Positions 4,498 to 54,531 of a stretch of 64,000 bases of DNA are shown here, piece after piece (position 1 is the stretch's first letter; each line of letters opens with the position of its first letter). Made by a program: the position numbers and the translations under genes. The DNA comes from an uncultured Candidatus Saccharibacteria bacterium. GTDB lineage: Bacteria; Patescibacteriota; WWE3; 2-01-FULL-39-13. The DNA is taken from assembly GCA_964370865.1 (NCBI GenBank), contig CAYJKF010000003.1, positions 7,735 through 71,734 on the forward strand, written 5' to 3'. The notes below the pieces were generated by a model, which did not search any database, was not told the origin of the DNA, and was given only the letters and a program-made list of their open reading frames with translations.

Positions 4498-6789
4498 ATG
4501 ATTAACAAAAAATTTGAAGTTAAAGGAATGCACTGTGCAAGTTGCAGCTCGATTATAAAAAAGAAAATATCTAAACTTCCTGGGGTCGAAGAATGCCATA
4601 TAAACTACGCAACAGAGAAAGCCAATATTTCATTTGATCCAAAAAATGTATCCGTTAATCAGATGAATAGTGAAATTAATAAACTTGGATATTCAATCAT
4701 TGACACCGAAAGTGATATTACCAGTTCCAGCAAAACAAATGAGCACATGGATCACACTCATCATACCGGAATTTCGATGACTAAGGAAGATAAATTAACT
4801 GAACTTAATAAGGCGAAAGTTAAGGTCAGTTTTGCTATGCCCATAACTTTACAAATTTTCACAATAATGATGTGGGATATTGCATCTAAAATATTCGAGT
4901 GGATTCCTATGATGCCTATAAATATGGAAATCCTAAATGCGATTTCTTTTGTACTTGCAACAATCTTTATATTTTGGATAGGACAATCATTTTTAGAAGG
5001 GGCAATACGTTTCTTTAGATATCGAGTTGCTAATATGGATACGCTTATTGGTATTGGGACGATTTCAGCTTTTATTTACAGCAGTGCAATATTTTTATTT
5101 CCGCAAATTATAGAACTATTAAATGCTCCTAATCATACCTATTTTGATGTAACTATCGTTGTTATTGGGTTTGTGACTTTTGGTAAGTATTTAGAAGCGA
5201 AATCTAAATTAAAAACAGGGGAGGCAATCGAGAAATTGCTTAAACTCCAAGCAAAAACAGCTACCGTTATTCGAGACGGCAAGGAAGAAGAGTTACCAAT
5301 TGAAAGTGTTGTCGTTGATGACATTATTATAGTAAAGCCTGGTGCAAAGATTCCTTTAGATGGAATTATTATTGAAGGTCAAACTTCAGTAGATGAATCA
5401 ATGATTACTGGCGAACCAATTCCTGAAGATAAAAAAGTAGGGGACATTGTAATCGGTGCCACTATAAATAAACAAGGTAATATAAGATATAAAGCCACAA
5501 AAGTCGGTTCAGATACAATGCTTTCACAAATCATTAAGTTGGTAGAAGACGCACAGGGCTCTCAAGCACAAATTCAAAACCTAGCAGATAAAATTTCTTC
5601 AATTTTCGTACCTATCGTTTTGGTTATATCTGTATGCGTTTTGGTTCTATGGCTAACTATAGGTAGCTATTTTATGGGATTTTCTAGTGGATTATCATAT
5701 GGAATATTATCTTTTGTAGGCATCCTGGTAATTGCATGTCCATGTGCACTTGGTTTAGCTACTCCAACAGCAATTATTGTTGGAGTTGGTAAAGGTGCAG
5801 AAAATGGAATCTTAATTAAAAATGCCGAAAGCCTAGAGAAACTTTATAAAGTAACAACTCTTGTATTTGATAAGACAGGAACAATTACAAAAGGTAAACC
5901 AACGGTTACGGATATTGTCTCATTTAATAATAACTTTACGCTTGAAGATTTACTTGGTAAGGCTTCAAGTTTAGAAAAGCTTTCAAGTCATCCACTGGCA
6001 ATGGCCGTAACTGAAAAAGCTTCTGAACTTAAATTGGAAAATTTAAAAGTCGAGAGTTTTAAAGAAACTGATGGGGTCGGAGTTGAAGGATTAATTCACA
6101 ACTTGAAAGTAATTGTGCGAAAACCAGTTAATTCAGAAAATCAAAATGAGACTATTCAACGTCTACAGAGCGAAGGAAAGACTGTTATTGTGGTCGAAGA
6201 AGAATCATATTTAATAGGCGCTATAGCAATTAGCGACACAATTAAAGAAACAGCTGTGGGGGCTATTAAGAAACTTCACTTACTTGGAATTAAAACTGTA
6301 ATGTTAACAGGGGATAACAGCAAAGCGGCTAATTTTATTGCTAAACAAGTTGGAATCGATATTGTGAAAGCTGAGGTTATGCCACAGGATAAATCAGCTG
6401 TAATAAAAGATCTTCAAAAAGATGGTGCAATCGTGGCAATGGCAGGGGATGGTATAAATGACGCTCCAGCCTTAACACAAGCCGACGTAGGCGTAGCTAT
6501 GGCTACTGGTACTGATATTGCAATTGAGTCTTCAGATATAATTCTATTACACGGCGATATATCTAAAATTCCACAAGCTTTTAAACTATCTCATTCAACC
6601 ATTCGAACGATAAAGCAAAATCTGTTTTGGGCATTCATTTACAATGTAGTAGGAATACCTCTTGCTGCAGGAGCTCTCTATCCTTTCTTTGGAATATTTT
6701 TAAACCCTGTATTTGCAGGGCTAGCTATGGCATTATCTTCTGTATCAGTTGTAAGTAATTCATTATTATTAAAGAGGTTAAAACTATGA
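4498..6789 (+). CDS. copA: Copper-translocating P1B-type ATPase
   Basis: N-terminal HMA domain GMHCASC, TM CPC motif (ACPCALG), DKTGTIT phosphorylation site, GDGINDAP hinge. Confidence 0.95.
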
Positions 6790-7814
6790 TAGATAATTTA
6801 TGGGTAGTGTTCATTACTGGATTAACGGTTGGTGGACTTACTTGTCTTGCAGTCCAAGGTGGACTTCTTGCCTCTGTATTGGCAAGTAAAGAAAATGAAA
6901 ATCCTAACAGCAAAGATATTCGTAAAAAAACTATTATTGCTACAGGTGCTTTTCTTATCTCTAAGCTTATTGCTTATGCATCTTTAGGGTTTGTACTTGG
7001 TGCATTTGGATCAGCATTAAGTATTAGTGATGATGTACAAGTTTTAATGCAACTCGCCGCAGGATTATATATGGTTGCGGTTGCTCTAAATTTGCTCGAG
7101 GTACATCCGATATTTAGGTATGTTATTTTTCAACCTCCTAAATTTTTAACTAAGTTAGTGAGAAATCAGACAAAATCAAAGGACTTATTTGCCCCAGCAC
7201 TACTAGGAGCTATGACAGTTTTTATTCCATGTGGAACTACGATAGCTATGGAAACGCTTGCAATAAGCTCTGCCAATCCAATATATGGGGCTGCAATTAT
7301 GGCTGCATTTACGCTTGGAACAATTCCTGCATTTCTTGGAATCGGAGTTCTTACTTCATTCTTAGGTGAAACTTTTAAATCAAAATTTTTAAAAGTTGCG
7401 GCTTTTGCCGTTCTATATTTAGGTGTTACATCTATCTGGGGATCGTTTACTGCACTCGGTTTCACATTTCAAGTCGGTGAAGGACCAAATCGTAATACTA
7501 AAGAGAATACAGCAATCCTTGGATCGCAAAGTGAAGAAAATCAACCAATAGATCAGGAAGTAGAAATTAATATTACCTCCTCAGGATACTCACCTGCATA
7601 CATTCAGGTTAAACAGGGATCAAGAGTTAGAGTTACATTGATTGGAAAAGGCGCATATTCATGTGCAGCTGCTTTTAGAATACCTTCTCTTGGAATATCT
7701 GAGAATCTATCTCCAAATGATAAAGTTCAATTTAGTTTTACACCTCAAAATAAAGGAAAAATACCATTTAATTGCTCAATGGGAATGTATACAGGAGTAA
7801 TAGAAGTATTATGA
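6786..7814 (+). CDS. Integral membrane protein (DsbD_2/CcdA-like TM domain with single Cys in two helices) fused to a C-terminal cupredoxin-like putative copper-binding domain
   Basis: About 6 TM helices (LTCLAVQGG..., VFIPCGTT...). C-terminal about 90 aa beta-rich domain with Cys/His/Met (SCAAAF...[11 protein letters not shown]). Start overlaps the copA stop, in the copper operon. Confidence 0.5.
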
Positions 7815-8044
7815 AAGTAATAACACTAAAAATACTTGGAATGCACTGTACAGCTTGTGCTATGAATATTGATTTTGATTTAGAAGACTTAGACGGAGTT
7901 AAAAATTCAACAACAAACTATGCCAAACAAACATGTGAAGTTGAATTTGATGAAAGTCTTATTACAGTTGATCAACTACAAGAACAGATCAAAAAAATAG
8001 GTTACGATTCAGAGGTTTTCTCCACCACTACTATTTCTTCTTAA
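7811..8044 (+). CDS. copZ: HMA-domain copper chaperone
   Basis: [20 protein letters not shown] (GMxCxxC). The ATG overlaps the upstream stop (ATGA). The ORF track gives a longer form from 7772. Confidence 0.85.
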   Translation: MKVITLKILGMHCTACAMNIDFDLEDLDGVKNSTTNYAKQTCEVEFDESLITVDQLQEQIKKIGYDSEVFSTTTISS

Positions 8045-9413: not shown

Positions 9414-9570
9414 TTGTATTTTATTGAAATATGTATATGGAGATTATACTCGAAATATGGGCTATTTTTAATAGCCTTTCATTATTAATTCTTACAAATA
9501 AATTCTAACAGATTTTCGTATCAATCCAGGCATACCTTTGAAATAGAATTGTATATGATAAAATCCCCTA

Positions 9571-9819
9571 ATGGATCAAACAAATGACAACAACTCTAGA
9601 AAAGTAGCAACAGTAACCGTAGATAAGAAAGCCTGCATAGGGGCTGCAACTTGTGTCGTATTAGCACCTAATGCATTTGAATTAGATTCTGATAATATAG
9701 CCTCACTTAAAACTACTGCACTCACTCATACAGACCAAGAATTAATTAATGCGGCTGCGTCATGCCCAACTCAGGCTATAAAGCTATTTGATGCAAGCGG
9801 GATCGAAATTAAAATATGA
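9571..9819 (+). CDS. Small [3Fe-4S]/[4Fe-4S] ferredoxin
   Basis: CIGAATCVVLAP...ASCPTQAI, a single-cluster Pyrococcus/Thermotoga-type ferredoxin pattern. Confidence 0.8.
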   Translation: MDQTNDNNSRKVATVTVDKKACIGAATCVVLAPNAFELDSDNIASLKTTALTHTDQELINAAASCPTQAIKLFDASGIEIKI

Positions 9820-10229
9820 ATAAAATAATATTAAAAATTTTCACGTTTTTTATAAGCCTAGGAATAGTAGGTGTCACTGGTTTTTTGATTCTTCATAACG
9901 AACAGGAAAATAAAAGGATTAAACATGCAAACGCACAAGATTATTATTCAGAACAATATAAATTATGGATGGATTATAAAAAGGAATACGACCTAAAAGT
10001 TTTAGAAATTAAACAGGCTAACCTCAAAGAGATGACCGAAGCAAAGTTAACTTATGAAAAGTTACTTGTTGATCAGCCCCAGTTAATTAAGGAACATACA
10101 CGATTAGTAGCTAGCGGAGTAACTAGTTCTCAAACCCAACAGAATACTGCGGCAACTTCAAGTAAAAAATCCAGTACAACTGTTCAGGTTTCAAAACCAA
10201 AGTCACAGCCTAAGACTCGTGCATCATAA
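9816..10229 (+). CDS. Membrane-anchored coiled-coil protein with a Ser/Thr/Gln-rich tail
   Basis: N-terminal TM helix. Start overlaps the ferredoxin stop (ATGA). No recognisable catalytic motif. Confidence 0.4.
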   Translation: MNKIILKIFTFFISLGIVGVTGFLILHNEQENKRIKHANAQDYYSEQYKLWMDYKKEYDLKVLEIKQANLKEMTEAKLTYEKLLVDQPQLIKEHTRLVASGVTSSQTQQNTAATSSKKSSTTVQVSKPKSQPKTRAS

Positions 10230-10231
10230 CT

Positions 10232-10729
10232 ATGAATAAACTATATCTACTAATAATTATATTTTTGATAACCATCTTCACCTTATTTCAAAGCTTAATA
10301 AATTCAAAAAACAGCCTTTTAAATAGCGGTCCTCAACCTGTTATCGCAGAGGATGACGATGAGAATGAAGACGAAGAAGAGGAAGAAGATGAACACGATG
10401 ATGAAAGAGAAGATGAGGATGAGTACGAAGATGATGACGATTATTATGAATATCTTACAGAGCCATCTGAATCTACTACAACTGTAGAGGAAGAACCTGT
10501 TACCACCTATATAAATGTTATTGATAATGGATATGAAGTCGATTCCGATAAGGATTTATTAGTAGATGCTGTTGATCCTCATCCGCTAATTCCCGAAATT
10601 GATTTTTTTACAGACTCGGATGAAGATTCTGTTCCTGATGCATATGATAGCTTTCCTGGTAAGGATGATTTCACCTATATAGAGTTCCAAGATATTGATG
10701 ATAATGGAATCCTCGATGATATTGAATAA
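10232..10729 (+). CDS. Secreted polyacidic (Asp/Glu-rich) protein, a possible cation-binding protein
   Basis: Signal peptide followed by a DDDENEDEEEEEDEHDDEREDEDEYEDDDDYYEY tract. Confidence 0.4.
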   Translation: MNKLYLLIIIFLITIFTLFQSLINSKNSLLNSGPQPVIAEDDDENEDEEEEEDEHDDEREDEDEYEDDDDYYEYLTEPSESTTTVEEEPVTTYINVIDNGYEVDSDKDLLVDAVDPHPLIPEIDFFTDSDEDSVPDAYDSFPGKDDFTYIEFQDIDDNGILDDIE

Positions 10730-10734
10730 ACTAA

Positions 10735-11673
10735 ATGCCTACTGTTGAGAAAAGCCTTCATAGAGAGATTATGGCTACTGATATCTACCTCTGTGTCAGC
10801 TCAGATAAATATCCAAAAGAAGAGATTGATGTTGATTTAAATCAAGCCATATCTAAACTCAAAGATTTTGAGCGTAGATTTAGTAGGTTTGATAGTGAAA
10901 GTGAGCTAAGCCAATTTAACAACTCCAGTAAATTTAAGGCCAGCCAAGAGTTCATAGATTTGCTCAATGTTTCACTAAAATATTATTTAAAAACTGAAAA
11001 AATATTTAACCCAGCACTTTTACCCCTTTTGTTGAAGGAAGGATATACTCATAGTTTTTATGATATGGATCAAAAAAGGAATCAAGTTATAAATAGCGAT
11101 GGGCATAATTATAATTTTGAAGATATAAAAATTAACACTCAAACTAATGTCGTTACTAAACCAATCAACATGAAGATAGATTTTGGAGGAATTGGAAAGG
11201 GATATATGGTAAATAAATTATCAGAATTCTTTAAAGAAAAATATAAGGATTATTGTATTGATTTAGGCGGTGACATGTTCCTAAGTGGAGAGGATAAACA
11301 AAATAAATATCCATATTGGGCAATAGAAATTGAAAATCCACTCTCAGATGAGTTGGAAATGCCAACTCTGATACTGAAAGATATGGCAATAGCTACTTCG
11401 GGTATTAATCGAAGAAATTGGCAAAAAGATAATGTAACTAAAAACCACATCATAAATAAAGTTCAAGGAAGCATTAACAATGATTTGTTATGCGTAACCG
11501 TCATATCTGACAATTGTATTAATTGCGATATATTTGCTAAAGTTCTATTGATTCTAGGGCTAGAATCTGGAGTAAAATATAGTGAAAATCATAATTTAGC
11601 AGCAATATTTGTTAGTAAAGGTAAATTATTAGTTATAAATAAAAATGCGCAAAAATTCGTTTGGACTGAATAA
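10735..11673 (+). CDS. apbE: FAD:protein FMN transferase, with no signal peptide and therefore probably cytoplasmic
   Basis: ApbE motifs IDFGGIGKGYMV, DLGGDM, AIATSG. N-terminus starts directly with the mature-domain-like MATDIYLCV. Confidence 0.8.
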   Translation: MPTVEKSLHREIMATDIYLCVSSDKYPKEEIDVDLNQAISKLKDFERRFSRFDSESELSQFNNSSKFKASQEFIDLLNVSLKYYLKTEKIFNPALLPLLLKEGYTHSFYDMDQKRNQVINSDGHNYNFEDIKINTQTNVVTKPINMKIDFGGIGKGYMVNKLSEFFKEKYKDYCIDLGGDMFLSGEDKQNKYPYWAIEIENPLSDELEMPTLILKDMAIATSGINRRNWQKDNVTKNHIINKVQGSINNDLLCVTVISDNCINCDIFAKVLLILGLESGVKYSENHNLAAIFVSKGKLLVINKNAQKFVWTE

Positions 11674-13333
11674 CTTAATACTTAGTGGGGTTATCTTTGG
11701 AATATTTTTATCCACTCCGACAATTACACTTGCACAATCCGATTATGCTGAAGATAGCGACCTTGATGGAATTAGTGACGAGGCCGAAATAGGCATATAT
11801 AAGACTAACCCAAACGATCCTGATACAGACAAAGATGGTGTATTAGATTATATTGAAATTACTGTCGACAAGACAAACCCCACAGATATAAACTCCTCCC
11901 ATTTAACTGAAATCTCTGCAGAGTCACTAATAAACCCAAGGGATCCGATTGTGTGGTACCTAAGTAGAATAACTGGAATAGGTGCCTTTATTATGTTTAC
12001 AATGGTGATTTCGATGGGTCTGTTGATGACATCGAAATTTCTACTAAAAGTGCCATTTCTTAAAGCTCCTGACGCCTTACAATTACATAGTTTTACAGCG
12101 TCGATAATAGCTTTCACATTAATGCTAGTACATTTTTTGTCATTAATTTTTGATGATTTTATAAAACTGGAACTGAGTGAGATTTTTGTACCTTTTATAT
12201 TAGATCGCGATACTAATAGTTCATTGGGGTTCAATCTTAGATTCCCAGTTGGTCTTGGAGTTACAGCATTCTATTTTGCATCCGTTCTAGTTATAACTTC
12301 ACAATTAAGAAAAAAGATTGTATCGATAAAAGTCTGGAGAAAAATACACTATTCTAGTTTTGTGTTTTATTTACTATTTTTATTTCACGCAATCCTTTCA
12401 GGTACGGATACAAAAGAACCATGGATGATAGGAATATACGTATGGTCCGTTACTCAGGTGACAATCCTCATTTTACTTAGAATTTTTGGTAAAAAATACT
12501 TTTTACCAAGGCCAGCGATGGTAAATCCTATTCCAACAACACAAACTCAGATAACACCTAAAATAGATATTCCCAAAAATATTTCAGTAACTCCTCAAAG
12601 ATTTGAATTCTCCCTTATGCAAAAAGCAATGTTAAATGAAAAAGTTATGCTGCTCAAATTATCTCTTCTAAATCCCCCAGAAATTAATTTTACTTCTGGC
12701 CAATTTTTAAATATAAAGGTTAACGATAAACAATATAGGTCATATTCCATTAGTTCAAGTAGTTCAGAAAAAAAATCAGTGGAAATTATTGCTGCAGTAG
12801 GTCATGAAGGCATTGGCGCTAATTACTTTAAGAGTTTAAAAGTAGGCGATAAAGGCGAATTTATTGGACCATCTGGTAAATTTATCCTACCTCAAGTCCT
12901 TTCCTCAAATTTAGTCTTTATAGCAACTGGAACTGGAATAAGTCCACTAATATCTATGTTAAGAACCCTTAACGAAAGGGACTGTAAATCAAATATTCAG
13001 TTAATTTTTGGAATCAGAAATCAAAGTGAATTGTTCCTCTTAGATGAAATAAAATCCTTTGAAAAATCAAAACTGACTTTTAAATACTTAGTATGTTTTT
13101 CACAATTACCTCAAGAAAGTGTTGAAAACTCAGTGAATGGACGGGTGACTGATTTTATTCCGATGGATAATAAAGAATCTCAATATTTTATATGTGGTAA
13201 CCCTTATATGGTGCAAGATGTAACAACGCTTTTAGAATCCAAACAAATACCACAAGAAAATATTTTTCATGAGAAGTTTACTGTAGTAAATGCTCCAAAA
13301 ATAGAAAACCCTGTACCTGTATTAAAAAACTAA
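11645..13333 (+). CDS. NOX/ferric-reductase-like flavocytochrome. It has a signal peptide, extracellular TSP3-like Ca-binding repeats, a 6-TM bis-heme ferric-reductase domain and a cytoplasmic FAD/NAD(P)H FNR-like domain.
   Basis: DSDLDGISDE / NPNDPDTDKDGVLD repeats. His pairs H-x14-H and H-x12-H in TM helices. FAD motif RSYSISS, GPSGKF, NAD motif GTGISP, CGNPYM. Confidence 0.75.
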   Translation: MRKNSFGLNNLILSGVIFGIFLSTPTITLAQSDYAEDSDLDGISDEAEIGIYKTNPNDPDTDKDGVLDYIEITVDKTNPTDINSSHLTEISAESLINPRDPIVWYLSRITGIGAFIMFTMVISMGLLMTSKFLLKVPFLKAPDALQLHSFTASIIAFTLMLVHFLSLIFDDFIKLELSEIFVPFILDRDTNSSLGFNLRFPVGLGVTAFYFASVLVITSQLRKKIVSIKVWRKIHYSSFVFYLLFLFHAILSGTDTKEPWMIGIYVWSVTQVTILILLRIFGKKYFLPRPAMVNPIPTTQTQITPKIDIPKNISVTPQRFEFSLMQKAMLNEKVMLLKLSLLNPPEINFTSGQFLNIKVNDKQYRSYSISSSSSEKKSVEIIAAVGHEGIGANYFKSLKVGDKGEFIGPSGKFILPQVLSSNLVFIATGTGISPLISMLRTLNERDCKSNIQLIFGIRNQSELFLLDEIKSFEKSKLTFKYLVCFSQLPQESVENSVNGRVTDFIPMDNKESQYFICGNPYMVQDVTTLLESKQIPQENIFHEKFTVVNAPKIENPVPVLKN

Positions 13334-13383: not shown

Positions 13384-13878
13384 GTGTATAATTTGCGCAT
13401 GATAGATACATATCCAGACCAACTAACCGAACTTTCTTTAATACAAGACCCACGACATGATGAAATATGCAGTAACTCATTGAATCTGTTCTATTCAGCT
13501 GCTAAGGAAACGACATCAGAAGATTTATTTGCAAATTCAACGGTGGTATATACCCTAACCATAGATCCAGTTACACGAGAAAGATTTATTACTGAAATAG
13601 GTCAAAGAAATTTTACCTCTTCCGATGGGCCAGCAGAAGGTGAAAGTTTTAGTAATCCAGTTAATCTACTCCCAACCCTTCCAGCAATTTATCCAGTCAG
13701 GGGTATCGTCAATGTAATGATATGCTTTGCCAGAGGAGTGCCTCTAATCTGTGATGGTAGGGCCGCCCGTGAAATATTTGGTAAAGCTCTACCCGGTCCT
13801 AAAGGCGCTGATAGTGGAACACGTCGATTCGCAAATGAATGTGGAGAAGTAGTCATTCACTGGGTAGAATTAGATTAA
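13384..13878 (+). CDS. Hypothetical protein (apparently higher GC than surroundings)
   Basis: ORF only, no recognised motif. GTG or downstream ATG start. Confidence 0.35.
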   Translation: MYNLRMIDTYPDQLTELSLIQDPRHDEICSNSLNLFYSAAKETTSEDLFANSTVVYTLTIDPVTRERFITEIGQRNFTSSDGPAEGESFSNPVNLLPTLPAIYPVRGIVNVMICFARGVPLICDGRAAREIFGKALPGPKGADSGTRRFANECGEVVIHWVELD

Positions 13879-14030: not shown

Positions 14031-14918
14031 TTAATTTACTTTTTTATTTCCTTGAGCATTTGGACTACTTTGAAGATAGCTTACGCAGTCTCCTTGGTTC
14101 TTGAATGCAGGATTATTGAAATCCATCCATCCTGAATTCTTACACTGATTTTTATCAGTTGGGCTAAGTGGCGTCTCAAAATCGAAAGTCGTGGTATCTC
14201 CACTAACTCCAAATTTAACCGCATCAATATTTTCGGTGTAACCATCAGCATATGGTTCTCCTACTCTTATACCTAACCATGAATCGGTTACACGAACTCT
14301 AACTCCAGAATAGGTAGCTAATATATCAGCCCAAGTTCTTGGCGTTGTTCCGGGTATTACTGATCCTGGCCATGTTGGTCCAGAGTATCTCCACATTGCA
14401 TTACCACTATTTAAAGCATCCCATTCTTGCCATGTATCTTGAACAACTGTTCCATTATCTGTTGGTAAAAAGACTAATCTTCTTTGCCATGTATCTGAAC
14501 CATTAAAATCAACATTAAATTGTAAGTAACCTGAACGGGTTGCTGATCCTCCATTACCTACTGAAGGGTTGTATGTGCTATATGCAAGTGTAGTTATATC
14601 AGCTAGTGGTGTTCCACTGAATTGATATGTAGCTAAATTCCTACGTTCGGATCCAGTTACGCTTATTTGAACGCTTCCAGTACCTTCAGGTGGTGTTGCT
14701 GGTCCTAAAACGAATGACCCGAGTGTATTATCAATAGTATCGGTTTCATCGTTATAGAAAAACCATGAATCAGGCTCTGCGACAACATCTGCTACATTAG
14801 TCGCCATATCACCTGGCAATACCACTACCGTAGAATCTGCTGCGAATGCTGGTCTTACGAGTAAAACCATAGCCAACGCTCCAAAGGTAATAAATAAATT
14901 TTTATATGTTATTTTCAT
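14031..14918 (-). CDS. Secreted hypothetical protein (signal peptide ...PAFA/ADS)
   Basis: N-terminal signal peptide. Trp/Gly/Thr-rich mature region. Confidence 0.45.
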   Translation of the reverse strand: MKITYKNLFITFGALAMVLLVRPAFAADSTVVVLPGDMATNVADVVAEPDSWFFYNDETDTIDNTLGSFVLGPATPPEGTGSVQISVTGSERRNLATYQFSGTPLADITTLAYSTYNPSVGNGGSATRSGYLQFNVDFNGSDTWQRRLVFLPTDNGTVVQDTWQEWDALNSGNAMWRYSGPTWPGSVIPGTTPRTWADILATYSGVRVRVTDSWLGIRVGEPYADGYTENIDAVKFGVSGDTTTFDFETPLSPTDKNQCKNSGWMDFNNPAFKNQGDCVSYLQSSPNAQGNKKVN

Positions 14919-14997: not shown

Positions 14998-15264
14998 TTA
15001 TTCTTCAACTTGACCATGTGGTTCACAGTATGTATCTACCCATGCTCGTCTTTGTTCTCCTACATCACCTGTAAAAGACTGTTTTATATCCATGTTTTGT
15101 GGAAAAAACTTGTCACTAGCGTAGAAGGATCTATCCATACCCCAACATGCATTTGAATTAGCATTAGGATTTTTAACAGCCGCACCAGGTACTGCTGCAA
15201 AACTTGGTGTAACAGCAAGCACTAAGGCTACGAGTGCTAAAACTGAGATTATATATTTATTCAT
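14998..15264 (-). CDS. Small secreted Cys-containing hypothetical protein
   Basis: Signal peptide MNKYIISVLALVALVLAVTPSFA, then a 2-Cys mature peptide. Confidence 0.45.
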   Translation of the reverse strand: MNKYIISVLALVALVLAVTPSFAAVPGAAVKNPNANSNACWGMDRSFYASDKFFPQNMDIKQSFTGDVGEQRRAWVDTYCEPHGQVEE

Positions 15265-19296: not shown

Positions 19297-22200
19297 CTAC
19301 TTAAATTCTACTACTCTATCACGACGAAAGGTTTTGTTAGTCCCCGAAAAACTATCGTATGCTGAGAAATAAGTATCGTTAAACTCAATCAGCGATAATA
19401 ACCGCCAATACTTCGCACTACCAGCCTTAGTAGATTGATAGCGGATATTTATGTTTTTAGAAACACGATCCCCCAAATATTCGCCAAATGCGTCTTGATT
19501 AACTTCACGCGCACCGACACTAAATCCCTTATTTACTGAGGAGTTGGGCTTCTGAACTTTTGTCGTGGAGGTCCCATTAACATCGTGTACGTTATCTACT
19601 TCTTCGTCAGAGAAATTAGTGATATACATTTCTTTTGGGGCATCTTCAGGAGCGATTGTTTCTTTTTCTAATTCCTTAACTACATCCGTCTTGCTGATCA
19701 TGGATTCGTAATCGAAATACTCCTTTATGTAATCAATTAGAGCTTTTTCCTCTCCCGGTTGGTCGCTTATCCAATCGAAATACGATATACGATAGAAATT
19801 CCAGCCAGCCGCTTCTAGGACACCCTGGCGCTCCCAGTCGCTCTGAATATATACTTGACCGTCTCCTCCTTCGAAATGTGTAGGGCCGTCACATTCAATG
19901 GCTAACTTTTTGCCATTATGAGATACCGTTATATCAATCCTAAAACCTAGTGATTCAGTTTGTGTTTCTATTGTGTAATCGTTAGGATCTAATTCTTTAG
20001 CCAAGAAGCTATATATATTCTCTTCAAAACCCGAATCAAACTGTTGTGCAGATTTGATGTGTCGGCGAGAAACAATTCCAAACTTATCAATATATTCCAA
20101 GTACTTTTTAATCCAGATACCATCCGGCCATAGCTCTGTTGCAATCGATGTAACGGTATGGACTTGTAATCTCGCACGACTAAACGCAACATTCACTCGC
20201 CCTGCCGCGATATCTTTACGAATCTCACCTCCTTCTCCTGTTAGAGCTATATAACGCCTCTTATCGCTGGGGTCTTTGATGACGAAAGAGTAGATTACTA
20301 TATCTCTTTCATCTCCTTGAATCCCATCAATAATAGACACCTTTATGTTTTCATCAGAAATAGTTTTACGAATCAACTCCGCCTGTTCATTGAAGAAGGT
20401 TAAAATAGCAATAGTTTTATCTTTTAAAGCCGCATCAATCTTTATCTCCTCTAATATTTGCTGAATTTTCCTTACTTCTGCGATATTGGTTTTATCGGAA
20501 GTTTCTTCTAGTTCGTTTGGAGCTACTAAATGGGTTAATAAAATGCGTCCTGTATTTTTGTAAGGCACAATATTATCGTTTATCGCTTCGAGATTACGAC
20601 CTATCGGTTCATAAAATGACTGATTAGAGAAACCTATCAGCTCTTTGGGAGAACGATAGTGGTACTTAAGTGTTTTGGTTTTAAAACCATTTAAATGGGC
20701 GATGTCCATAACAGATTTAACGGTGTCTTCTTCTGCTTTGATTTGGTAGACATCAGGAATCTTGTGCTTTTTGGCAATCGCTTTCAATTGATCATTAGAC
20801 TTAAACATAATATTATCGTCTCGCATTTGTAATGTATCCCCAAAGAAAATAGTGTGTTTAGCACGGAACATAGAAGGAAATGCGTATGCAAAGTTGCATT
20901 GAGATGCCTCATCAATAATCACATAATCAAATGCGTTCATTTCTAAAGGTACAATTCGACTTACATCATCCAAACTCATCATCCAAATCGGAAGTACTTT
21001 AGTCATTGCCTTGAAATTATCTTCGTTATGTTTAAGCCTATCAAATGTTTTATTGGCTTTTTTACTTTTTGTTAGACTTCTAGCAACTTGTGCAAGAGTC
21101 GCTTTCAAAGATTTGTCGTTATTCGCTTCCCCGATTCTAGTTAAGATACGATTTCGGACATAATTAGTAGTATTAGTTCTGTAAAATTTTCTTATATCCT
21201 TTATTTCGCGATTTAATTCATTTGCCGAATATAATGACACCTCGTTAATCTGTTCAGAAATCTTAGTATACCGAGTTAAATCACTAAAGACCTGCTCCTC
21301 ACCTCCATTTTCTATAATAATCTTTTTAATATTTGTGAATGCCGTTGCGGGTATATTTTTACTCTGTAATAAATCCTGTACCAACGCGCGACTACGAGCG
21401 ATTGCCTTAATTTGACTGGTATAATTAAAATATTCCACAAGACTATCGAGTAGTTGTAAACGTGCTGACTTAGTGTTGTCTGAGAACAGTATTCTCTCAA
21501 GCTCAATATAAATTTCCTGAAGTATAGTTCGGCAGTATTTCTTTAAAGCATTATGTAGTTTTGTGTTATTAACTCTAATACCAAACCAACTGGATCGCTC
21601 AGGCATCTTAGACTTAAAATAGGTTTGAATATCTGTTATTGAATCGATGGTCGACTGGTAATTAATTTCAAGTGACTTAAACTTGGTGTCCAGAGCATTT
21701 ATTAATTTGCCGTGGACGTTCTCTGTATCTTTGATCTTTGACACCATCTTCGCAATGAATTTTTCCTGTTCCAATACTTGGTCATACCATTCACGACTGA
21801 TTCCGTAGGTATACAATGGTTCAAGATAATCCAGTTTTCTACGCTCAACGTATAATGTATATATATATCTTTCATTCTCGATATTTTTATCAAATATATT
21901 GGATCGGTCGGCGAGTAAGGCCAGAGGCTCTTTTAAGTCACCAACTTTACTTTTTTGGAATTCTCGATTTAAAGCTTGAAGGGTAATTGCTGCGCTATCC
22001 TTTTCGTCAGATTCATTATACATTTTTGAAGTCTTGTCTGGTATGTAACCAAATAAGAATGGAATATCTAATCCTTTCAGCTTATCCTTTACTCCACGAA
22101 TGGCTTGATCCTTTTGACTTGCAAAAAGTACGCGTTTACCTGTTGCTGCAAAATGAACTAACAAATTGGCAATTGTCTGTGACTTACCTGTACCTGGAGG

Positions 22201-23181
22201 ACCTTCAACAATTACTGCTTTATTTGAAGTGATTCCTAATACTTTTAATTGATACTTATCGTAGTCAAAGGGGAAGAATATTTCAGTACTTCCGTCTTCC
22301 GAAACATGCTGTTCAATTGTCATATCCTCATCTGAAACCCAACTTCCAAGAGACGTTTTAATTAAATCCGTGTCATCAATAGCTGCGATTGCTTTAAGGT
22401 CCTCCGCCAAGAAATAATTTGTCTTGTTGGTAATGCAAACAATACTAAATTCGAAAGAAGGAATAAGGGTAATTGACTTTGCATCGGCTCTATCAAGCTG
22501 CGTTCTTATTATTGCCCACAGTTCCTCAATGAACTCATCTTCAAGAGGCAAAATTGTTCTTCCTTCTGATTCTGCAGCCGCTATAAACGTAAATATCTCA
22601 TCATAGTATTGCTGCGGTAAGTAGTTCTTCAGTGGACCACATAGTATTTCAATATAATTGTCGGGCAGTTCAAGAATGACATTAACGCCAACCGCGGTGT
22701 ATTTGAGATTAATCGCAGCTACCGGTAACTGTATAAGGGGTGCTTCATATTTTTCGTATTCTTCGCTGTAATCGGCCTCTAAAATTCGTCGGGATTCAAA
22801 GGACACAAAACCGGTTTGAAGAACAACTCTTTTAGTGTACTCATCTGTTTTTATCTTAGTATCAATCTCTTGGATTTGATTTAAGAGTTCTCGGTCACGT
22901 GCAATACGAGCCTCTGCTTTACGCTGTTCCTCACTTTTGTCATCTTCCGGGGTATTGGGGTCAAAGTGACTATCTAATGATATTACTAGAGAAAGAGTGA
23001 TGCTAGCCATATCATTCTCAAAGATCAGTTCGGAAATTGGTAGCAAGTTAACATCTATTTTATCGGTTTTAACTGGCCTACTCCTCGGACCACTGCTTGA
23101 AATCAAACCCACATAGTCGAGTCCATAATTAGCTAATTGGCGAATTGATATTGGTATTTTTGACATACTATATAGAAGCAA
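19297..23181 (-). CDS. Large Upf1/DNA2-like SF1 helicase (AAA_11/AAA_12 type) with an N-terminal about 330-aa unknown (DUF4011-like) region and a C-terminal DUF559/Vsr-like endonuclease domain
   Basis: Walker A VIVEGPPGTGKSQTI, Walker B VIIDEASQ, motif V IDGIQGDERDIVIYSFV, motif VI RVNVAFSRAR. C-terminus ...LAIECDGPTHF...DWERQGVLEAAGWNFYRISYFDW matches the DUF559 core. Confidence 0.8.
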   Translation of the reverse strand: MLLYSMSKIPISIRQLANYGLDYVGLISSSGPRSRPVKTDKIDVNLLPISELIFENDMASITLSLVISLDSHFDPNTPEDDKSEEQRKAEARIARDRELLNQIQEIDTKIKTDEYTKRVVLQTGFVSFESRRILEADYSEEYEKYEAPLIQLPVAAINLKYTAVGVNVILELPDNYIEILCGPLKNYLPQQYYDEIFTFIAAAESEGRTILPLEDEFIEELWAIIRTQLDRADAKSITLIPSFEFSIVCITNKTNYFLAEDLKAIAAIDDTDLIKTSLGSWVSDEDMTIEQHVSEDGSTEIFFPFDYDKYQLKVLGITSNKAVIVEGPPGTGKSQTIANLLVHFAATGKRVLFASQKDQAIRGVKDKLKGLDIPFLFGYIPDKTSKMYNESDEKDSAAITLQALNREFQKSKVGDLKEPLALLADRSNIFDKNIENERYIYTLYVERRKLDYLEPLYTYGISREWYDQVLEQEKFIAKMVSKIKDTENVHGKLINALDTKFKSLEINYQSTIDSITDIQTYFKSKMPERSSWFGIRVNNTKLHNALKKYCRTILQEIYIELERILFSDNTKSARLQLLDSLVEYFNYTSQIKAIARSRALVQDLLQSKNIPATAFTNIKKIIIENGGEEQVFSDLTRYTKISEQINEVSLYSANELNREIKDIRKFYRTNTTNYVRNRILTRIGEANNDKSLKATLAQVARSLTKSKKANKTFDRLKHNEDNFKAMTKVLPIWMMSLDDVSRIVPLEMNAFDYVIIDEASQCNFAYAFPSMFRAKHTIFFGDTLQMRDDNIMFKSNDQLKAIAKKHKIPDVYQIKAEEDTVKSVMDIAHLNGFKTKTLKYHYRSPKELIGFSNQSFYEPIGRNLEAINDNIVPYKNTGRILLTHLVAPNELEETSDKTNIAEVRKIQQILEEIKIDAALKDKTIAILTFFNEQAELIRKTISDENIKVSIIDGIQGDERDIVIYSFVIKDPSDKRRYIALTGEGGEIRKDIAAGRVNVAFSRARLQVHTVTSIATELWPDGIWIKKYLEYIDKFGIVSRRHIKSAQQFDSGFEENIYSFLAKELDPNDYTIETQTESLGFRIDITVSHNGKKLAIECDGPTHFEGGDGQVYIQSDWERQGVLEAAGWNFYRISYFDWISDQPGEEKALIDYIKEYFDYESMISKTDVVKELEKETIAPEDAPKEMYITNFSDEEVDNVHDVNGTSTTKVQKPNSSVNKGFSVGAREVNQDAFGEYLGDRVSKNINIRYQSTKAGSAKYWRLLSLIEFNDTYFSAYDSFSGTNKTFRRDRVVEFK

Positions 23182-24391: not shown

Positions 24392-27079
24392 TTGTGCAAT
24401 AATAAAAATATTCAGTATTTCAACTATAATCTAGGAATGGAAGCGGATAAATTATTATTCTTAGCAAAATTGCGTAAAATTGCCGAACAAAGAGGTGGGC
24501 TATGTCTCTCAAATAGCTATTATAGTGCAAAAACATCCATGTTATGGCAATGTAGAACTGGACATCAATGGTATGCAATTCCAGATTCAATTCGAAGAGG
24601 ATCATGGTGTCCTTACTGTTCCGGTAAACATCAGAGTATAAAAGATATGGAAGAGATTGCCGCCAAAAGAAATGGTAAATGTTTATCCTCTCATTTCGAT
24701 AAGGCGAAGACAAAACTATTATGGGAGTGTAACAAAGGGCATCAGTGGTATGCAACTCCAGATAAAGTTAAAAGGGGATCATGGTGTCCTCAATGCATTG
24801 GTAGAGGTAAGACGATTAATGATATGAAACAAGTAGCTGAATTGAATGGAGGAGTATGTCTATCCACAGAACTCATCAATTTGAATACTAAGCTGTTATG
24901 GAAATGCAAACACGGACATATATGGGAGGCAAGTGGCACTTCTGTATATACCAATGGTAATTGGTGTGCTAAATGTGGTTATAAAAAAGTAGCTAAGCAG
25001 AAAATAAAGCATACCCTATCAGAAGCTAAACAAATAGCTACAGAAAGGGGGGGTTATTGCGTAAGTAAAAAGTATATTTCATTTAACGCAAAATTATCTT
25101 GGAAGTGTCAAAATGGACATCTCTGGAAAGCTTCCTTTGGTAATATTCTTAAAGGAAGTTGGTGCCCAATATGTTCTTCTCATCGAGGTGAGAAAATATC
25201 TCGATTAATTTTAGAAAAATTATTTGGGCGAGAATTTCCCAAATCATATCCTAAGTGGTTAACAAGTAAGTCTCATACCCAACTAGAACTAGATGGATAC
25301 AACGACCAACTCAAAATTGGACTAGAATATCAGGGACAGTTGCATTTCAATAACATTGACCACTTTTATAATACTGATGAAGAGTTTCAGAACCGCCAAG
25401 AAACTGATAGACTTAAACGCAAATTGTGTCGAAAACACAACGTAAAATTATTGGAAATTCCATATACAATCGACTACGACAAAATTGAAAGCTACATTCG
25501 TATATGGTTAGTTGAAAATAAAATTCCACAAGATACAATTAATCCCCACAAAATAGATATTACTCCCTATGAAATATATTCAGCTACAGAAATGGATCAA
25601 CTAAAAGAAACTATAAGAAATCGTGGAGGCAATATAAATATTCAACAATATACCGGATCAGTAGGACGTATAGAAGTAATATGCAAAAATAACCACCGTT
25701 GGGAAACTACACCTACAAGTATAAAGTCTGGTAGGTGGTGCCCATACTGTTTAGGGAGATATAAAAGTATAGACGATATGCAAACCTTAGCATTACGAAA
25801 TGAAGGTTTATGTTTATCTGAAAAATATATAAACGGAATTACCCCACTTAAGTGGAAGTGCAAGGCCGGACACATATGGTATGCAAAGCCAAGTAACATT
25901 ATATTTGGAAAATGGTGTCCAAGATGCGTTGGGCAAAATAAAACAATACTTGATATGGTTACTCTAGCAAAAAAATTTGGAGGCAAGTGTCTTTCTCCAA
26001 TTTATATAAATGTAAAAACTCCACTTCAATGGGAATGCAGTAATGGTCATGTATGGGAGGATACACCCGATGCAATAATCCAAGGAAAACGTTGCCCATA
26101 TTGTAATCGGCAGTATTATACTATCGTCGAGGCTAAAAAGCTTGCAACAACTAAAAAGGGGGAGTGTTTATCTACTACAGATTATAAAGGGAAAACTAAT
26201 CTTCTTTGGAAATGCAATAAAGATCATAGTTGGAATGCCTCTCCGTTTGTTATCGAATCAGGAAAATGGTGTCCAGTATGTGCGAAAGAGAAGCGAATTA
26301 CTATTAATAAGGCAAGGAAGTTAGCAGAAAGTAGAGGTGGGGCATGTATTTCAGATCTCTATGTAAACTCGTTGACTCCATTATTATGGAAGTGTGCAAC
26401 AGGCCACGAATGGAAGAGCACATATCAGAACATTCGAAAGGGGAATTGGTGTCCGTATTGTTCAAAAAATAGAAAGATCACGAAGGATGTTATAGATGAT
26501 TTTATCAAACCTAGAGGTGGCATATGCCTGTCGAATGGCCCATTCAAATCTAAGATGGATCTTCAATGGATGTGTAAATATGGCCACAAATGGTCTACAC
26601 AGTATACTAATATACAACGAGGGCATTGGTGTCCTATATGTGCAAAGCAAACATCAATCCAAATTTCTGATATTAAGAAATTTGCTAATAGAAAGCATGG
26701 AGATTGCTTATCTACGTCTTATAAAAACAACTCTCAATTATTGACTTGGTCTTGTGAACAAGGACACGTTTGGAAAGCAAGTTATTCAAATGTTAGTCAA
26801 GGTACATGGTGTCCATATTGCCGAGGGAAATATAAAACAATTAAAGATATGCAAGAACTCGCAAAGCCTAAAGGTGGTAAATGTTTATCGAGTGTATATA
26901 TAAGCGCAAAAACCAAACTAACATGGGAATGTAAATATGGGCATATTTGGGAAGCTACACCTGATAGTATCATAAGTAAACATACATGGTGTCCAATCTG
27001 CAAGAGTCAACGCTTTAAACTTACACCTGAGATAGATAAGATTAGTTTGGAAGCAACTAATGATACACTTGCATCATAA
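24392..27079 (+). CDS. Protein with 12 tandem Cys/Trp/His zinc-ribbon-like repeats (DUF4379 / 'probable zinc-ribbon'-like). After repeat 4 the array is interrupted by a DUF559/Vsr-like endonuclease core.
   Basis: Repeats of about 58 aa matching GGxCLSxxYxxxxTxLxWxCxxGHxWxAxPxxIxxGxWCPxC, counted directly. Insert contains LELDGY...LEYQGQLH...DRLKRKLCRKHNVKLLEI, which resembles iEvDG..H...D.R...L...G.vlRf of DUF559. Confidence 0.7.
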   Translation: MCNNKNIQYFNYNLGMEADKLLFLAKLRKIAEQRGGLCLSNSYYSAKTSMLWQCRTGHQWYAIPDSIRRGSWCPYCSGKHQSIKDMEEIAAKRNGKCLSSHFDKAKTKLLWECNKGHQWYATPDKVKRGSWCPQCIGRGKTINDMKQVAELNGGVCLSTELINLNTKLLWKCKHGHIWEASGTSVYTNGNWCAKCGYKKVAKQKIKHTLSEAKQIATERGGYCVSKKYISFNAKLSWKCQNGHLWKASFGNILKGSWCPICSSHRGEKISRLILEKLFGREFPKSYPKWLTSKSHTQLELDGYNDQLKIGLEYQGQLHFNNIDHFYNTDEEFQNRQETDRLKRKLCRKHNVKLLEIPYTIDYDKIESYIRIWLVENKIPQDTINPHKIDITPYEIYSATEMDQLKETIRNRGGNINIQQYTGSVGRIEVICKNNHRWETTPTSIKSGRWCPYCLGRYKSIDDMQTLALRNEGLCLSEKYINGITPLKWKCKAGHIWYAKPSNIIFGKWCPRCVGQNKTILDMVTLAKKFGGKCLSPIYINVKTPLQWECSNGHVWEDTPDAIIQGKRCPYCNRQYYTIVEAKKLATTKKGECLSTTDYKGKTNLLWKCNKDHSWNASPFVIESGKWCPVCAKEKRITINKARKLAESRGGACISDLYVNSLTPLLWKCATGHEWKSTYQNIRKGNWCPYCSKNRKITKDVIDDFIKPRGGICLSNGPFKSKMDLQWMCKYGHKWSTQYTNIQRGHWCPICAKQTSIQISDIKKFANRKHGDCLSTSYKNNSQLLTWSCEQGHVWKASYSNVSQGTWCPYCRGKYKTIKDMQELAKPKGGKCLSSVYISAKTKLTWECKYGHIWEATPDSIISKHTWCPICKSQRFKLTPEIDKISLEATNDTLAS
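24452..27010 (+). repeat. Intragenic tandem coding repeats, about 174-bp period (4 copies, about 420-bp interruption, 8 copies)
   Basis: Repeated protein units produce periodic DNA. These are not CRISPR: there are no short identical repeats or spacers, and the region is coding. Confidence 0.7.
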
Positions 27080-33658: not shown

Positions 33659-33699
33659 CGGCTTCAAAGGCCGCTGTCCTACCGTTAGACGATCGGGCA
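33626..33699 (-). tRNA. tRNA-Gln (UUG)
   Basis: Cloverleaf folded by hand: acceptor UGCCCGA/UUGGGCA, anticodon loop CUUUGAA, T-loop TTCGAAT, discriminator G and CCA encoded. Confidence 0.85.
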
Positions 33700-53938: not shown

Positions 53939-54015
53939 TGGTCGGGGAGACAGGACTCGAACCTGTGACCTCTTCGTCCCAAACGAAGCGCGCTAGCCAA
54001 CTGCGCTACACCCCG
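53939..54015 (-). tRNA. tRNA-Pro (UGG); U6:U67 mismatch in the acceptor stem
   Basis: Hand-folded cloverleaf: D-stem GCGC/GCGC, anticodon loop UUUGGGA, T-loop TTCGAGT, CCA encoded. Confidence 0.75.
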
Positions 54016-54339
54016 AAAATCTTGTATCTACTTAATTGGCAATCCTATAGTTTTACCGACGTTCTTTAGTACGCCAACCACAATTGACAGGACGAGTTTA
54101 CAAAAATAGAAAAAAACCTTTAGAATTCGAGACAGAACAAATGCTGCATACTGTTCAGCCTGGTTTTTCTTAACATCCATATCATACTGGTTTTGTACGA
54201 AGTTGTCTTGCATTATGAAATTATACGTTAAATGTAGATTTTAAGCATCATATACGTTTATAATATATATGCGTTACAATAACAAAAACGGTCAGTTTGT
54301 ATGTTGTGTCTAGAAATACCCACAACTGGTGCCTTTTAT

Positions 54340-54425
54340 GCCGCGGTGGCGGAATGGTAGACGCGCTGGACTTAAAATCCAGTTCCTTCACCGGAGTGAG
54401 AGTTCGAGTCTCTCCCGCGGCACCA
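54340..54425 (+). tRNA. tRNA-Leu (UAA), long variable arm
   Basis: Acceptor GCCGCGG/CCGCGGC, anticodon loop CUUAAAA, T-loop TTCGAGT, CCA encoded. Confidence 0.85.
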
Positions 54426-54437
54426 AGGCATGGATTT

Positions 54438-54514: not shown

Positions 54515-54531
54515 TAATATACATACCATCC

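Follow-up and report, generated by a model that had tools for sequence, protein, structure and literature searches.

A predicted electron-export operon of a WWE3-type patescibacterium, with a bis-haem flavocytochrome, a leaderless ApbE and a candidate flavinylation tail

Flavinylation-associated systems of the 'MsrQ-like' type, which are defined by bioinformatics and of which no member has been characterised (Meheust et al. 2021, eLife, PMC8238504; Huang et al. 2024, mSystems, PMC11334425), are the closest known frame for the locus described here. This is a predicted five-gene operon at positions 9571–13333 of a 64,000-nt stretch of DNA (hereafter 'the window') from an uncultured Candidatus Saccharibacteria bacterium (contig CAYJKF010000003.1), encoding a ferredoxin (g1), a membrane-anchored protein (g2), an acidic protein (g3), an ApbE-family protein (g4) and a membrane flavocytochrome (g5). 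In both cases a PF01794-type two-haem membrane protein, often with C-terminal PF00175, is clustered with apbE, the Pfam score of g5 being marginal, and electrons are likewise proposed to pass from NAD(P)H to an acceptor outside the cytoplasm, which may be iron. Whereas the ApbE and FMN-bind genes of the MsrQ-like class need a signal peptide or lipobox, a filter of the survey that defined it, g4 is leaderless and carries Lys at a metal-ligand position ('Lys-type'). MsrQ-like clusters typically encode an FMN_bind (PF04205) protein with a [S/T]GA[S/T] motif, but the operon has neither: two unannotated small proteins, one with a conserved tail and one acidic, replace FMN_bind, and a ferredoxin is added. 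The 2021 survey (PMC8238504) found the candidate phyla radiation (CPR) 'strikingly underrepresented' and acknowledged that some ApbE substrates were unidentified; those of its supplementary tables that exist in text form hold no WWE3 or Patescibacteria entries.

The NADPH oxidase (NOX) of Streptococcus pneumoniae, SpNOX (8qq7, 8qt6, 8qta), like g5, joins a bis-haem domain to a cytoplasmic FAD/NAD(P)H domain in a single chain, and its physiological acceptor is likewise open, a protein acceptor having been proposed (PMC11564096). [quoted passage not shown] E. coli MsrQ holds one haem and a cytosolic-side FMN, the latter through R77/R78 (PMC12525009), and serves the molybdoenzyme MsrP, whereas the present module has four His for two haems and no MsrP. 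The ApbE of Klebsiella pneumoniae is leaderless and cytoplasmic like g4 and flavinylates a soluble fumarate reductase (PMC12052999); what it modifies is an FMN_bind domain that lies in the cytoplasm and bears the canonical motif, while g4 has no such target nearby and its partners are membrane or extracytoplasmic proteins. Multi-flavinylated proteins and the C-terminal extensions of FMN_red proteins (Huang et al. 2024, PMC11334425) bear their sites on unstructured extensions or repeats, as would the tail of g2 and the repeats of a relative in locus L021, although those sites are canonical [S/T]GA[S/T] and their modification was shown experimentally, whereas the P-x-T-x-x-S motif described here is a non-canonical candidate.

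All five open reading frames (ORFs) are on the + strand, arranged head to tail, and have the coordinates that an initial annotation of this DNA had given them. Its statement that they are packed with gaps or overlaps of 0–6 nt stands at three junctions (g1/g2, −4 nt; g2/g3, +2 nt; g3/g4, +5 nt) and fails at g4/g5, where the overlap is 29 nt. The gene identities it proposed were recovered by Pfam for g1 (Fer4_15), g4 (ApbE) and g5 (reductase domains), and by hydropathy g2 and g3 each begin with a single hydrophobic segment, whereas g4 has no such segment and g5 has several. No terminator-like site was found on the + strand inside the cluster and, with such tight junctions, g1–g5 most likely form one operon. 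The cluster is more than a chance arrangement, because its order recurs in three loci (L001–L003) in which g5 is only 41–46% identical; with variations, it recurs also in L005–L007, L009 and L013. The best overall explanation, to which we would assign a probability of roughly one half, is that the operon encodes a transmembrane electron exporter in which ApbE flavinylates the tail of g2. Its best-supported part, on grounds of fold, invariant histidines and topology, is a path from NAD(P)H to FAD, to an inner haem, to an outer haem and to the outside. Gene content, conservation, synteny, fusions, fold and motifs are observed; from them we infer that haem and FAD are bound, which way electrons flow, that the tail is flavinylated and what the final acceptor is.

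The cytochrome g5 (562 aa, 11645–13333, +) was recognised as a membrane cytochrome fused to an FNR-type reductase from Pfam, NCBIfam, a structural model and Foldseek. Following the + strand, it comprises a signal peptide or first helix (residues 1–31, ...TLAQ/S, 11645–11737; hydropathy, and helix 8–29 of the model), with A-x-Q/A-type sites at the N-terminus of orthologues; an extracytoplasmic region with two TSP3-type (thrombospondin-3-like) putative calcium-binding repeats, from alignment (11747–11884); a ferric-reductase-like five-helix haem domain, from the invariant His and the model helices (11942–12499); and a cytoplasmic FNR-type FAD/NAD(P)H domain with RSYS and GTGISP motifs (12587–13288), FAD_binding_6 (PF00970) and NAD_binding_1 (PF00175) both scoring above threshold. 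The AlphaFold (AF2) model (pLDDT, the predicted local distance difference test, 78.6) consists of an N-terminal helix, the TSP3 region, five more membrane helices (102–127, 142–168, 199–220, 228–252 and 259–281) and a well-folded C-terminal domain. Since the helix number is odd and the NAD(P)H domain must be cytoplasmic, the TSP3 region is placed outside. Its Asp and Gly residues D37, D39, D41, G42, D60, D62, D64 and D68 are invariant in 14 sequences, and TSP3_bac (PF18884) scores 20.7 bits against a cut-off of 25 in g5 and 36.6 bits in the L016 relative.

Two His pairs, H148-x14-H163 and H235-x12-H248, are invariant in 14 close and 44 wider (unique) family members, so that the haem-ligand check proposed with the initial annotation came out in its favour. 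Across the 44 unique FRDs W104, R108, W231, D170, P183 and G253-[T/S]254-D255 are likewise invariant, with D170, P183 and G253-T254-D255 at the outer face. In the model, H148/H235 are predicted to lie near the inner face and H163/H248 near the outer. Foldseek against the PDB returned SpNOX (8qta, 8qt6, 8qq7) as top match over ~470 aligned columns; the reductase half alone matched benzoate dioxygenase reductase (1krh, root mean square deviation 2.0 Å) and in NCBIfam is closest to BenC/MmoC-type reductases. Relatives reach PF01794 (L016, 40.2 bits; L020, 28.0 bits; precomputed matches for P0001, P0008, P0012 and P0013), and these scores, the SpNOX-like fold and the invariant His place g5 in the FRD superfamily. 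The two-haem membrane protein with a cytoplasmic NAD(P)H/FAD module that had been proposed is supported by the four invariant His and the structural match. Homologues of g5 are few: only 8 loci were found among ~185,000 species-representative genomes, confined to Patescibacteria and mostly to candidate division WWE3, in agreement with the CPR-like host suspected from the DNA itself.

Description of g5 as NOX-type holds for the bis-His arrangement and the fold; it does not hold for the reductase, which is BenC/FNR-type (PF00970/PF00175) and lacks both NOX-specific cofactor motifs. Judged by the filters of Hajjar et al. 2017 (PMC5676040), g5 possesses two H-x12/14-H pairs at least 20 residues apart, 3–7 transmembrane (TM) segments and a C-terminal FAD/NAD(P)H domain. 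The FAD motif H[PSA]F[TS][LIMV], however, has no match in g5, L001–L003, L006 or L007, which read RSYS or RAYS instead, and in place of the NADPH motif the dehydrogenase domain reads GTGISP in g5 and GTGVAP in L001–L003 (GVGFAP in L006 alone); the sole regular-expression match in g5, GLGVTA at residue 203, falls within a TM helix. In further contrast to SpNOX, g5 has an N-terminal leader and extracytoplasmic TSP3 repeats, its relatives have the reductase as a separate gene or not at all, and the cytochrome is accompanied by ApbE, g2 and g3 (L014 being the exception). Judging from these motifs, g5 appears to work like a NOX yet to stand outside that family as defined. In a rival reading g5 is a bacterial NADPH oxidase in function, passing electrons to O2 to yield superoxide or peroxide, perhaps against or on a host cell, with the other genes as accessories; SpNOX as top structural match, the same succession of haem domain and C-terminal reductase, and NOX-like bis-His spacing (x14/x12 in g5, x13/x12 in the wider set described below) all agree with this. 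We consider it improbable, as both motifs are absent, the acidic conserved outer face (D170, D255) suits cations better than O2, ApbE, g2 and g3 are left unexplained, and even SpNOX may not use oxygen physiologically, a protein acceptor having been proposed (PMC11564096).

The membrane-anchored protein g2 (137 aa, 9816–10229, +; hydropathy and orthologue alignment) starts with a TM helix at its N-terminus, continues through a helical stalk and a Ser/Thr-rich linker, and ends in a conserved C-terminus; it matched no Pfam family. Conservation among orthologues singles out the C-terminal motif P-K-T-R-A-S-COOH (10209–10226, +), or P-x-T-x-x-S, which is present at the C-terminus in 8/9 WWE3-type orthologues (T-x-x-S in 9/9) and also in tails selected by synteny in L016 (PVTAVS) and L020 (PRTHMS). 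Shuffling of these tails (nine WWE3-type, L016 and L020) gave a probability per tail of 0.3–7% for T-x-x-S and 0.1–0.5% for P-x-T-x-x-S. The motif is a candidate for either a non-canonical ApbE acceptor site or a docking peptide.

Topology of g2 is predicted to be N-in, C-out. In all orthologues, read directly, the N-terminal flank of the TM helix is more positive than the C-terminal flank, and the tail is placed outside because in L016, L020 and L021 the TM helix and tail follow a cytoplasmic FNR domain in one chain. The L016 and L020 proteins run from FNR domain to TM helix to low-complexity tail in a single polypeptide, which makes the g2-like element physically part of the reductase, with its tail across the membrane from the FNR domain. 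In L021 a single chain holds FNR, a TM helix, four A-P-x-P-[V/I]-T-S-V-S repeats and an acidic terminus; from its sequence, this chain can be read as a fusion of FNR, g2-like and g3-like features, in which the motif behaves as a repeatable short linear site.

No such conservation attends the flavinylation site first suggested for g2, an SGVTS: ASGVTS does occur at residues 99–104 of the window protein and is conserved in no orthologue. The search of the operon's proteins for a flavinylation motif that had been recommended found no [S/T]GA[S/T] in any protein of seven orthologous clusters. The window scan for SGA[ST] found only the IMPDH and HrcA ORFs, and a canonical-motif scan of cluster proteins, window and loci added to these three irrelevant ORFs, none with Asp at −3; the window and the WWE3-type loci contain no D-x-x-[S/T]-G-A-[S/T] target. 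FMN_bind (PF04205) gave no Pfam match in g2 or g3, nor in eight g2-like proteins at E ≤ 1. The window motif apart, standard flavin-based extracellular electron transfer, with ApbE flavinylating the SGVTS of g2, has nothing in the cluster to act upon, the SGAT ORFs of the window being IMPDH and HrcA; it is already largely refuted and very improbable indeed. Word-index homology searches with g2 and with the C-terminal domain of g3 returned essentially no relatives.

Two other routes were considered and rejected. Cytoplasmic loops of the cytochrome were examined as the ApbE target, but TS129-130 and TS218-219 of the WWE3 proteins are not conserved in the wider family; the 44 FRDs have no conserved Ser/Thr in these loops, which makes the cytochrome an unlikely cytoplasmic target. 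Twin-arginine export of g2 was suggested by RR in some high-GC N-termini, is not seen in WWE3, and was judged a composition effect.

The enzyme that would act on the tail, g4 (312 aa, 10735–11673, +), is a leaderless member of the ApbE family (PF02424, 173.5 bits, 8.3e-51). It has no lipobox, its domain begins at about residue 13, and in every orthologue the domain starts ~12 residues from the N-terminus, confirming the earlier remark that this ApbE is without a signal peptide. Export of ApbE by fusion or frameshift with g3 was rejected, the relative frames of the two genes being inconsistent between loci. Alignment to Vc_ApbE (6nxi/6nxj) and FmnB (7esa), with the His column fixed by the H257G mutant entry 6nxj, matches S222, H238 and D265 of g4 to S241, H257 and D285, the triad of Vc_ApbE. 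Across 89 ApbE sequences S222 and H238 do not vary, and position 265 is always Asp or Glu; since the triad is retained, g4 is plausibly a catalytically active ApbE.

Ligands of metal site 1 in E. coli ApbE are D280, D283 and T284 (PMC4767422); g4 keeps D265, with A268 and K269 standing in for D283 and T284, so that this site is not preserved, and D-I-F-A-K takes the place of the canonical D-x-L-[S/A]-T that follows the catalytic Asp. An exhaustive HMMER search yielded 15,452 ApbE cluster representatives, among which the closest 150 are nearly all 300–325 aa long, without a hydrophobic leader, and with Lys at the metal-ligand Thr position; the Lys is invariant across the aligned clade. Because these representatives nearly all share Lys, size and absence of a leader, the Lys-type leaderless ApbEs appear to be a large clade and g4 no local oddity. 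The same Lys may set g4 apart from Klebsiella ApbE. The change from Thr to Lys may mean an altered metal dependence or a lost transferase activity.

Among close relatives the order ferredoxin-g2-g3-ApbE-fused FRD/FNR is shared by the window and L001–L003. Loci L007 and L009 have ferredoxin-g2-g3-ApbE-FRD with FNR as a separate gene, L006 has g2-g3-ApbE-FRD-FNR without ferredoxin, and L005 and L013, the latter a complete curated 897-kb WWE3 genome, have g2-g3-ApbE-FRD alone. FNR is a separate gene in L006, L007, L009 and L014, and a ferredoxin gene was found only in loci with the FNR module (7/7). The five-gene set put forward in the initial annotation is thus not conserved as a unit; what is conserved is a core made up of g2, g3, ApbE and cytochrome. 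Because these four persist without them in L005 and L013, ferredoxin and FNR are optional input parts, and g2, g3 and ApbE the constant partners of the cytochrome. The overlap between the ApbE and cytochrome genes, of 11–38 nt, recurs in L001–L007 and L016. In L014, which lacks g2, g3 and ApbE, the N-terminal TSP3 repeats of the FRD (5878–6822) are degenerate; this single case suggests that the TSP3 repeats of the cytochrome work with g3, which has three similar D-x-D-x-D motifs. Two genes were found split, the ApbE of L007 (3179–4104) into pieces of 97 and 167 aa and the FRD of L009 (6001–6963) into pieces of 206 and 109 aa, which could reflect assembly errors or decay of the module.

The module extends beyond WWE3. 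A Lys-type ApbE only 36% identical to g4 (P0091) lies in an FNR/unknown/ApbE/TSP3-FRD cluster (L016). Metagenome contigs were scanned with an alignment of non-WWE3 Lys-type ApbEs (A4), another alignment (A3) being too diverse, which gave a wide set of 80 loci, mostly of GC content 0.6–0.77, found by ApbE subtype alone. FRD adjoins ApbE in 49/80, and every adjoining FRD has H-x13-H and H-x12-H pairs 76 residues apart; the outer-loop motif H-[AG]-x3-G-[TS]-D-[ST] is kept in most. In 76/80 there is no hydrophobic stretch upstream of the ApbE domain, even with the maximal ORF. Neighbourhood counts use hidden Markov model (HMM) domain boundaries for ApbE; over-extended ApbE ORFs mask g2-like genes. 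An ORF ending in [ST]-x-[AGST]-S was present within 2.5 kb on the ApbE strand in 50/80 loci, compared with 6/80 on the opposite strand, which served as control (per ORF, 52/656 against 6/730; Fisher p=5.7e-12). Of the 27 loci whose ApbE is flanked by at least 1.2 kb in either direction, 20 had FRD, and 19 of these 20 a tail protein as well, while 7/27 had neither; four of the seven carried a canonical Thr-type ApbE. Lys-type ApbEs occurred 45 times with FRD and 23 times without, the latter mostly on short contigs, and Thr-type ApbEs twice with and six times without. Canonical D-x-x-[ST]-G-A-[ST] neighbours (DGISGAT/DAVSGAS) were found in only one locus of the 80, L076, which is among those seven and has a Thr-type ApbE and no FRD.

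A second recurrent neighbour in the wide set is a signal-anchored protein ending in Asp/His/Glu-rich runs. Gene order in the module varies between lineages, which argues for selection on the association rather than for inherited order, and L101 shows the same gene set with the gene calls of the source pipeline itself. Pfam recognised none of eight tail proteins. An HMM built for FNR found it adjacent in 1/80 wide-set loci; this model is narrow, but we read the result as a true absence from most. The case for equivalent tails in different phyla is built on synteny, architecture and a few positions at the terminus, and no sequence homology is claimed. Taken together, a bis-haem FRD cytochrome, a leaderless Lys-type ApbE, an [S/T]-x-x-S tail protein and an acidic membrane-anchored protein make up a widespread four-gene module. 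The gene set had been singled out as notable in a CPR organism; it is conserved there, but the module is widespread in high-GC lineages and not peculiar to CPR. It can also be duplicated, locus L068 (GC 0.72) containing two ApbE + FRD pairs in tandem on one contig (~5000–9000). In high-GC loci (L101, 6044–7715, and small ORFs of L035 and L038) a '...YLAA...' helix and a 'V-I-T-E-Y-V-Y' strand following the TM segment are common to three small proteins, namely the tail protein, the acid-ended protein and another that is TM-anchored, which therefore resemble paralogues within a single family.

In the main rival reading, Lys-type ApbEs are not transferases. They might instead serve as an FAD-holding cytoplasmic subunit or loader at the inner face of the cytochrome, or as an enzyme processing FAD to FMN; with metal site 1 lost, ApbE would be the point of flavin entry in versions of the module without FNR, g2 and g3 would be structural or cation-binding outer parts, and the [S/T]-x-x-S terminus a docking peptide. 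Lys at the position of the metal ligand T284 of E. coli, the absence of a leader throughout the clade and the lack of an adjacent FNR in most wide-set modules fit such a role, as does the conserved ApbE/FRD overlap, which suggests that both are made together. E. coli MsrQ, moreover, works with a flavin on its cytosolic side (PMC12525009), ApbE structures show the isoalloxazine ring exposed to solvent (PMC12052999), and there would be no need for a cytoplasmic enzyme to meet an external tail. The Ser/His/acid triad is nevertheless strictly kept, though its residues also bind FAD, and neither the terminal motif that travels with ApbE nor its four repeats in L021 would be accounted for. We know of no ApbE that acts as a redox subunit, and overall regard a non-transferase ApbE as rather unlikely.

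Flavinylation of the g2 tail motif by ApbE is the leading, though unproven, interpretation. A terminus is the position at which flavin tags on proteins perform best, and the acceptor Ser/Thr is the one residue they cannot do without (PMC12052999). Tail flavinylation is favoured because the transferase triad is strictly kept, because the sole conserved Ser/Thr feature travelling with ApbE has the canonical [S/T]-x-x-[S/T] spacing, because the tail offers just such a terminal acceptor residue, and because the motif can repeat, as in L021, like the sites of multi-flavinylated proteins. In the proposed exporter, the FNR domain of g5 would take hydride from NAD(P)H onto FAD on the cytoplasmic side, with g1 as its soluble one-electron partner linking it to the ferredoxin pool of the cell. 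Electrons would cross the membrane on two b-type haems, the inner held by H148/H235 and the outer by H163/H248, to an acceptor site on the outer face that may be formed by the acidic patch of D170 and G253-T254-D255, the TSP3 repeats of g5, g2 and the polyacidic g3. ApbE would attach FMN to the P-x-T-x-x-S of the g2 tail, tethering a flavin on a flexible leash beside the outer haem, from where it could hand electrons to Fe(III), Cu(II) or other cations held by g3, or to a different acceptor outside the cell. That g3-type proteins are acidic and rich in His, and that the cytochrome presents an acidic outer face, suggests metal cations as acceptors. We also infer that the NAD(P)H/ferredoxin input module was added in Patescibacteria because they have no quinone pool.

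Several observations weigh against this scheme. The main obstacle is that the leaderless ApbE is predicted to be cytoplasmic and the g2 tail to be outside, so the tail would need to receive its flavin before it is exported. Such an order of events would resolve the clash for an unstructured tail: a site at the C-terminus would be the last to leave the cytoplasm, and small adducts on side chains are tolerated by the Sec channel. That Lys-type leaderless ApbEs are a distinct class, flavinylating P-x-[S/T]-x-x-S in the cytoplasm, with its supply of FAD, before the tail is threaded outward, is put forward as a tentative possibility. Gly-Ala, part of the canonical site, is missing from the tail motif, and Lys replaces the metal-ligand Thr of known Mg2+-dependent ApbEs, so that g4 may be no transferase. 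Part of the wide-set tail consensus (S at 0, S/T at −3) was imposed by the selection rule, although unselected positions are conserved nonetheless (P at −7, V at −12 and −14, R/K at −2), and an HMM from high-GC tails does not retrieve the window g2. In L014 a ferredoxin-FRD-FNR cluster has no g2, g3 or ApbE nearby, and the cytochrome there apparently works without them. The Ferric_reduct score of g5 itself is 25.5 bits, below the cut-off of 28, and no acceptor, metal transporter or reductase partner lies consistently next to the module. Finally, Patescibacteria are generally regarded as lacking haem synthesis.

The remaining two proteins of the operon fit at either end of the proposed path. 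The first, g1 (82 aa, 9571–9819, +), is a small single-cluster ferredoxin (Pfam Fer4_15, 45.6 bits, 1.2e-11, and Fer4_13) of the three-Cys type: C22, C28 and C65-P66 form C-x2-A-x2-C...C-P, with Ala at the variable position, and are kept in 7 orthologues. Both the profile and the motif C-x2-X-x2-C...C-P are those of single-cluster Fer4_15/Fer4_13 ferredoxins. The third, g3 (165 aa, 10232–10729, +), is an exported or membrane-anchored acidic protein with an N-terminal leader and no Pfam family above threshold. By sequence reading, residues 40–70 are a polyacidic run, nearly all Asp/Glu (10349–10441, +), and a conserved C-terminal domain (10508–10726, +) holds the three D-x-D-x-D putative calcium-binding motifs, thrombospondin-3-like, which were recognised by eye and from an alignment of 10 orthologues and are not called by Pfam. 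The termini of its counterparts in other phyla are the Asp/His/Glu-rich runs mentioned above. Binding of Fe(III) or Ca2+ by g3, as first suggested for it, is a plausible hypothesis.

Upstream of the operon an aspartyl-tRNA synthetase gene (aspS) is divergent from g1, across an intergenic gap of 157 nt. A terminator-like hairpin lies on the + strand between the two starts (9459–9477, GGGCTATTTTTAATAGCCT and then a T-rich run), and matched no Rfam family at the gathering threshold; it may be a leader element or may terminate read-through. Beyond aspS, which intervenes on the other strand, a copper/heavy-metal handling set occupies 4498–8044 on the + strand: an HMA-domain P-type ATPase (4498–6789), a protein that joins an unusual DsbD_2 membrane domain to a cupredoxin-like one (6786–7814) and a CopZ-like HMA protein (7772–8044). 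These copper-handling genes hint at a metal acceptor, which is suggestive only, as similar neighbours are not conserved at other loci. Elsewhere, L001 and L002 (4362–4910) have an ArsR-type regulator and a glutaredoxin immediately upstream of the module and on its strand, and L007 (418–1324) has divergent msrA and msrB upstream of it.

Such neighbours raise the alternative that the module is an MsrQ-type feeder of an extracytoplasmic repair or redox enzyme encoded elsewhere, be it a thiol enzyme, a copper enzyme or one that reduces methionine sulfoxide, for which the msr genes of L007, the glutaredoxin and regulator of L001 and L002, and the copper-handling set of the window would be the indications. 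They are not conserved between loci, however; no MsrP-type molybdoenzyme occurs in the window cluster or in the loci with examined gene calls, and four invariant His, for two haems, differ from the one haem plus FMN of E. coli MsrQ. A feeder of this kind seems quite improbable.

Other features of the window lie apart from the operon. Downstream of it are an unannotated GTG-start ORF without a family (13384–13878) and two convergent genes for secreted proteins with signal-peptide-like N-termini, to which no function is assigned (14031–14918 and 14998–15264). A 1294-aa protein (19297–23181, −) combines an AAA_11/AAA_12 helicase with a C-terminal MTES_1575 restriction-endonuclease-like domain, and an 895-aa protein (24392–27079, +) carries the DUF4379 treble-clef zinc finger (191 bits), evidently in many repeats, after a weak Redoxin-like N-terminal stretch. 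A serine recombinase gene (31877–33658; Resolvase + Zn_ribbon_recom) slightly overlaps a tRNA gene on the opposite strand (33629–33699), and this junction (31877–33699) may be the edge of an integrated element. Four tRNA genes lie within 700 nt at 53942–54604, and the tRNA at 60574–60645 lies within a listed ORF (60570–61022) that is probably not a gene.

The initial annotation did not recognise this gene set as one already described, and no description of the module was found in the searchable literature; the same literature holds no description of Lys-type ApbEs or of the tail motif, and absence there is no proof. Patescibacteria are regarded as fermenters without electron transport chains, and a conserved path from NAD(P)H to the outside bears on how they dispose of reductant, acquire metals or act on host surfaces. 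The module offers candidate protein partners for bacterial NOX/FRD cytochromes, the acceptor being open even for SpNOX, and brings to light a large clade of leaderless ApbEs with an altered metal site, which previous surveys had filtered out. The tail is a candidate new flavinylation motif, directly testable, that could serve as a protein tag. If the proposal is true, flavinylation first and export after would constitute a route to extracytoplasmic flavoproteins in which no FAD exporter is needed; cytoplasmic tail flavinylation would then reach from Patescibacteria into high-GC phyla and provide bacterial NOX/FRD-type proteins with the natural acceptor that has long been sought for them.

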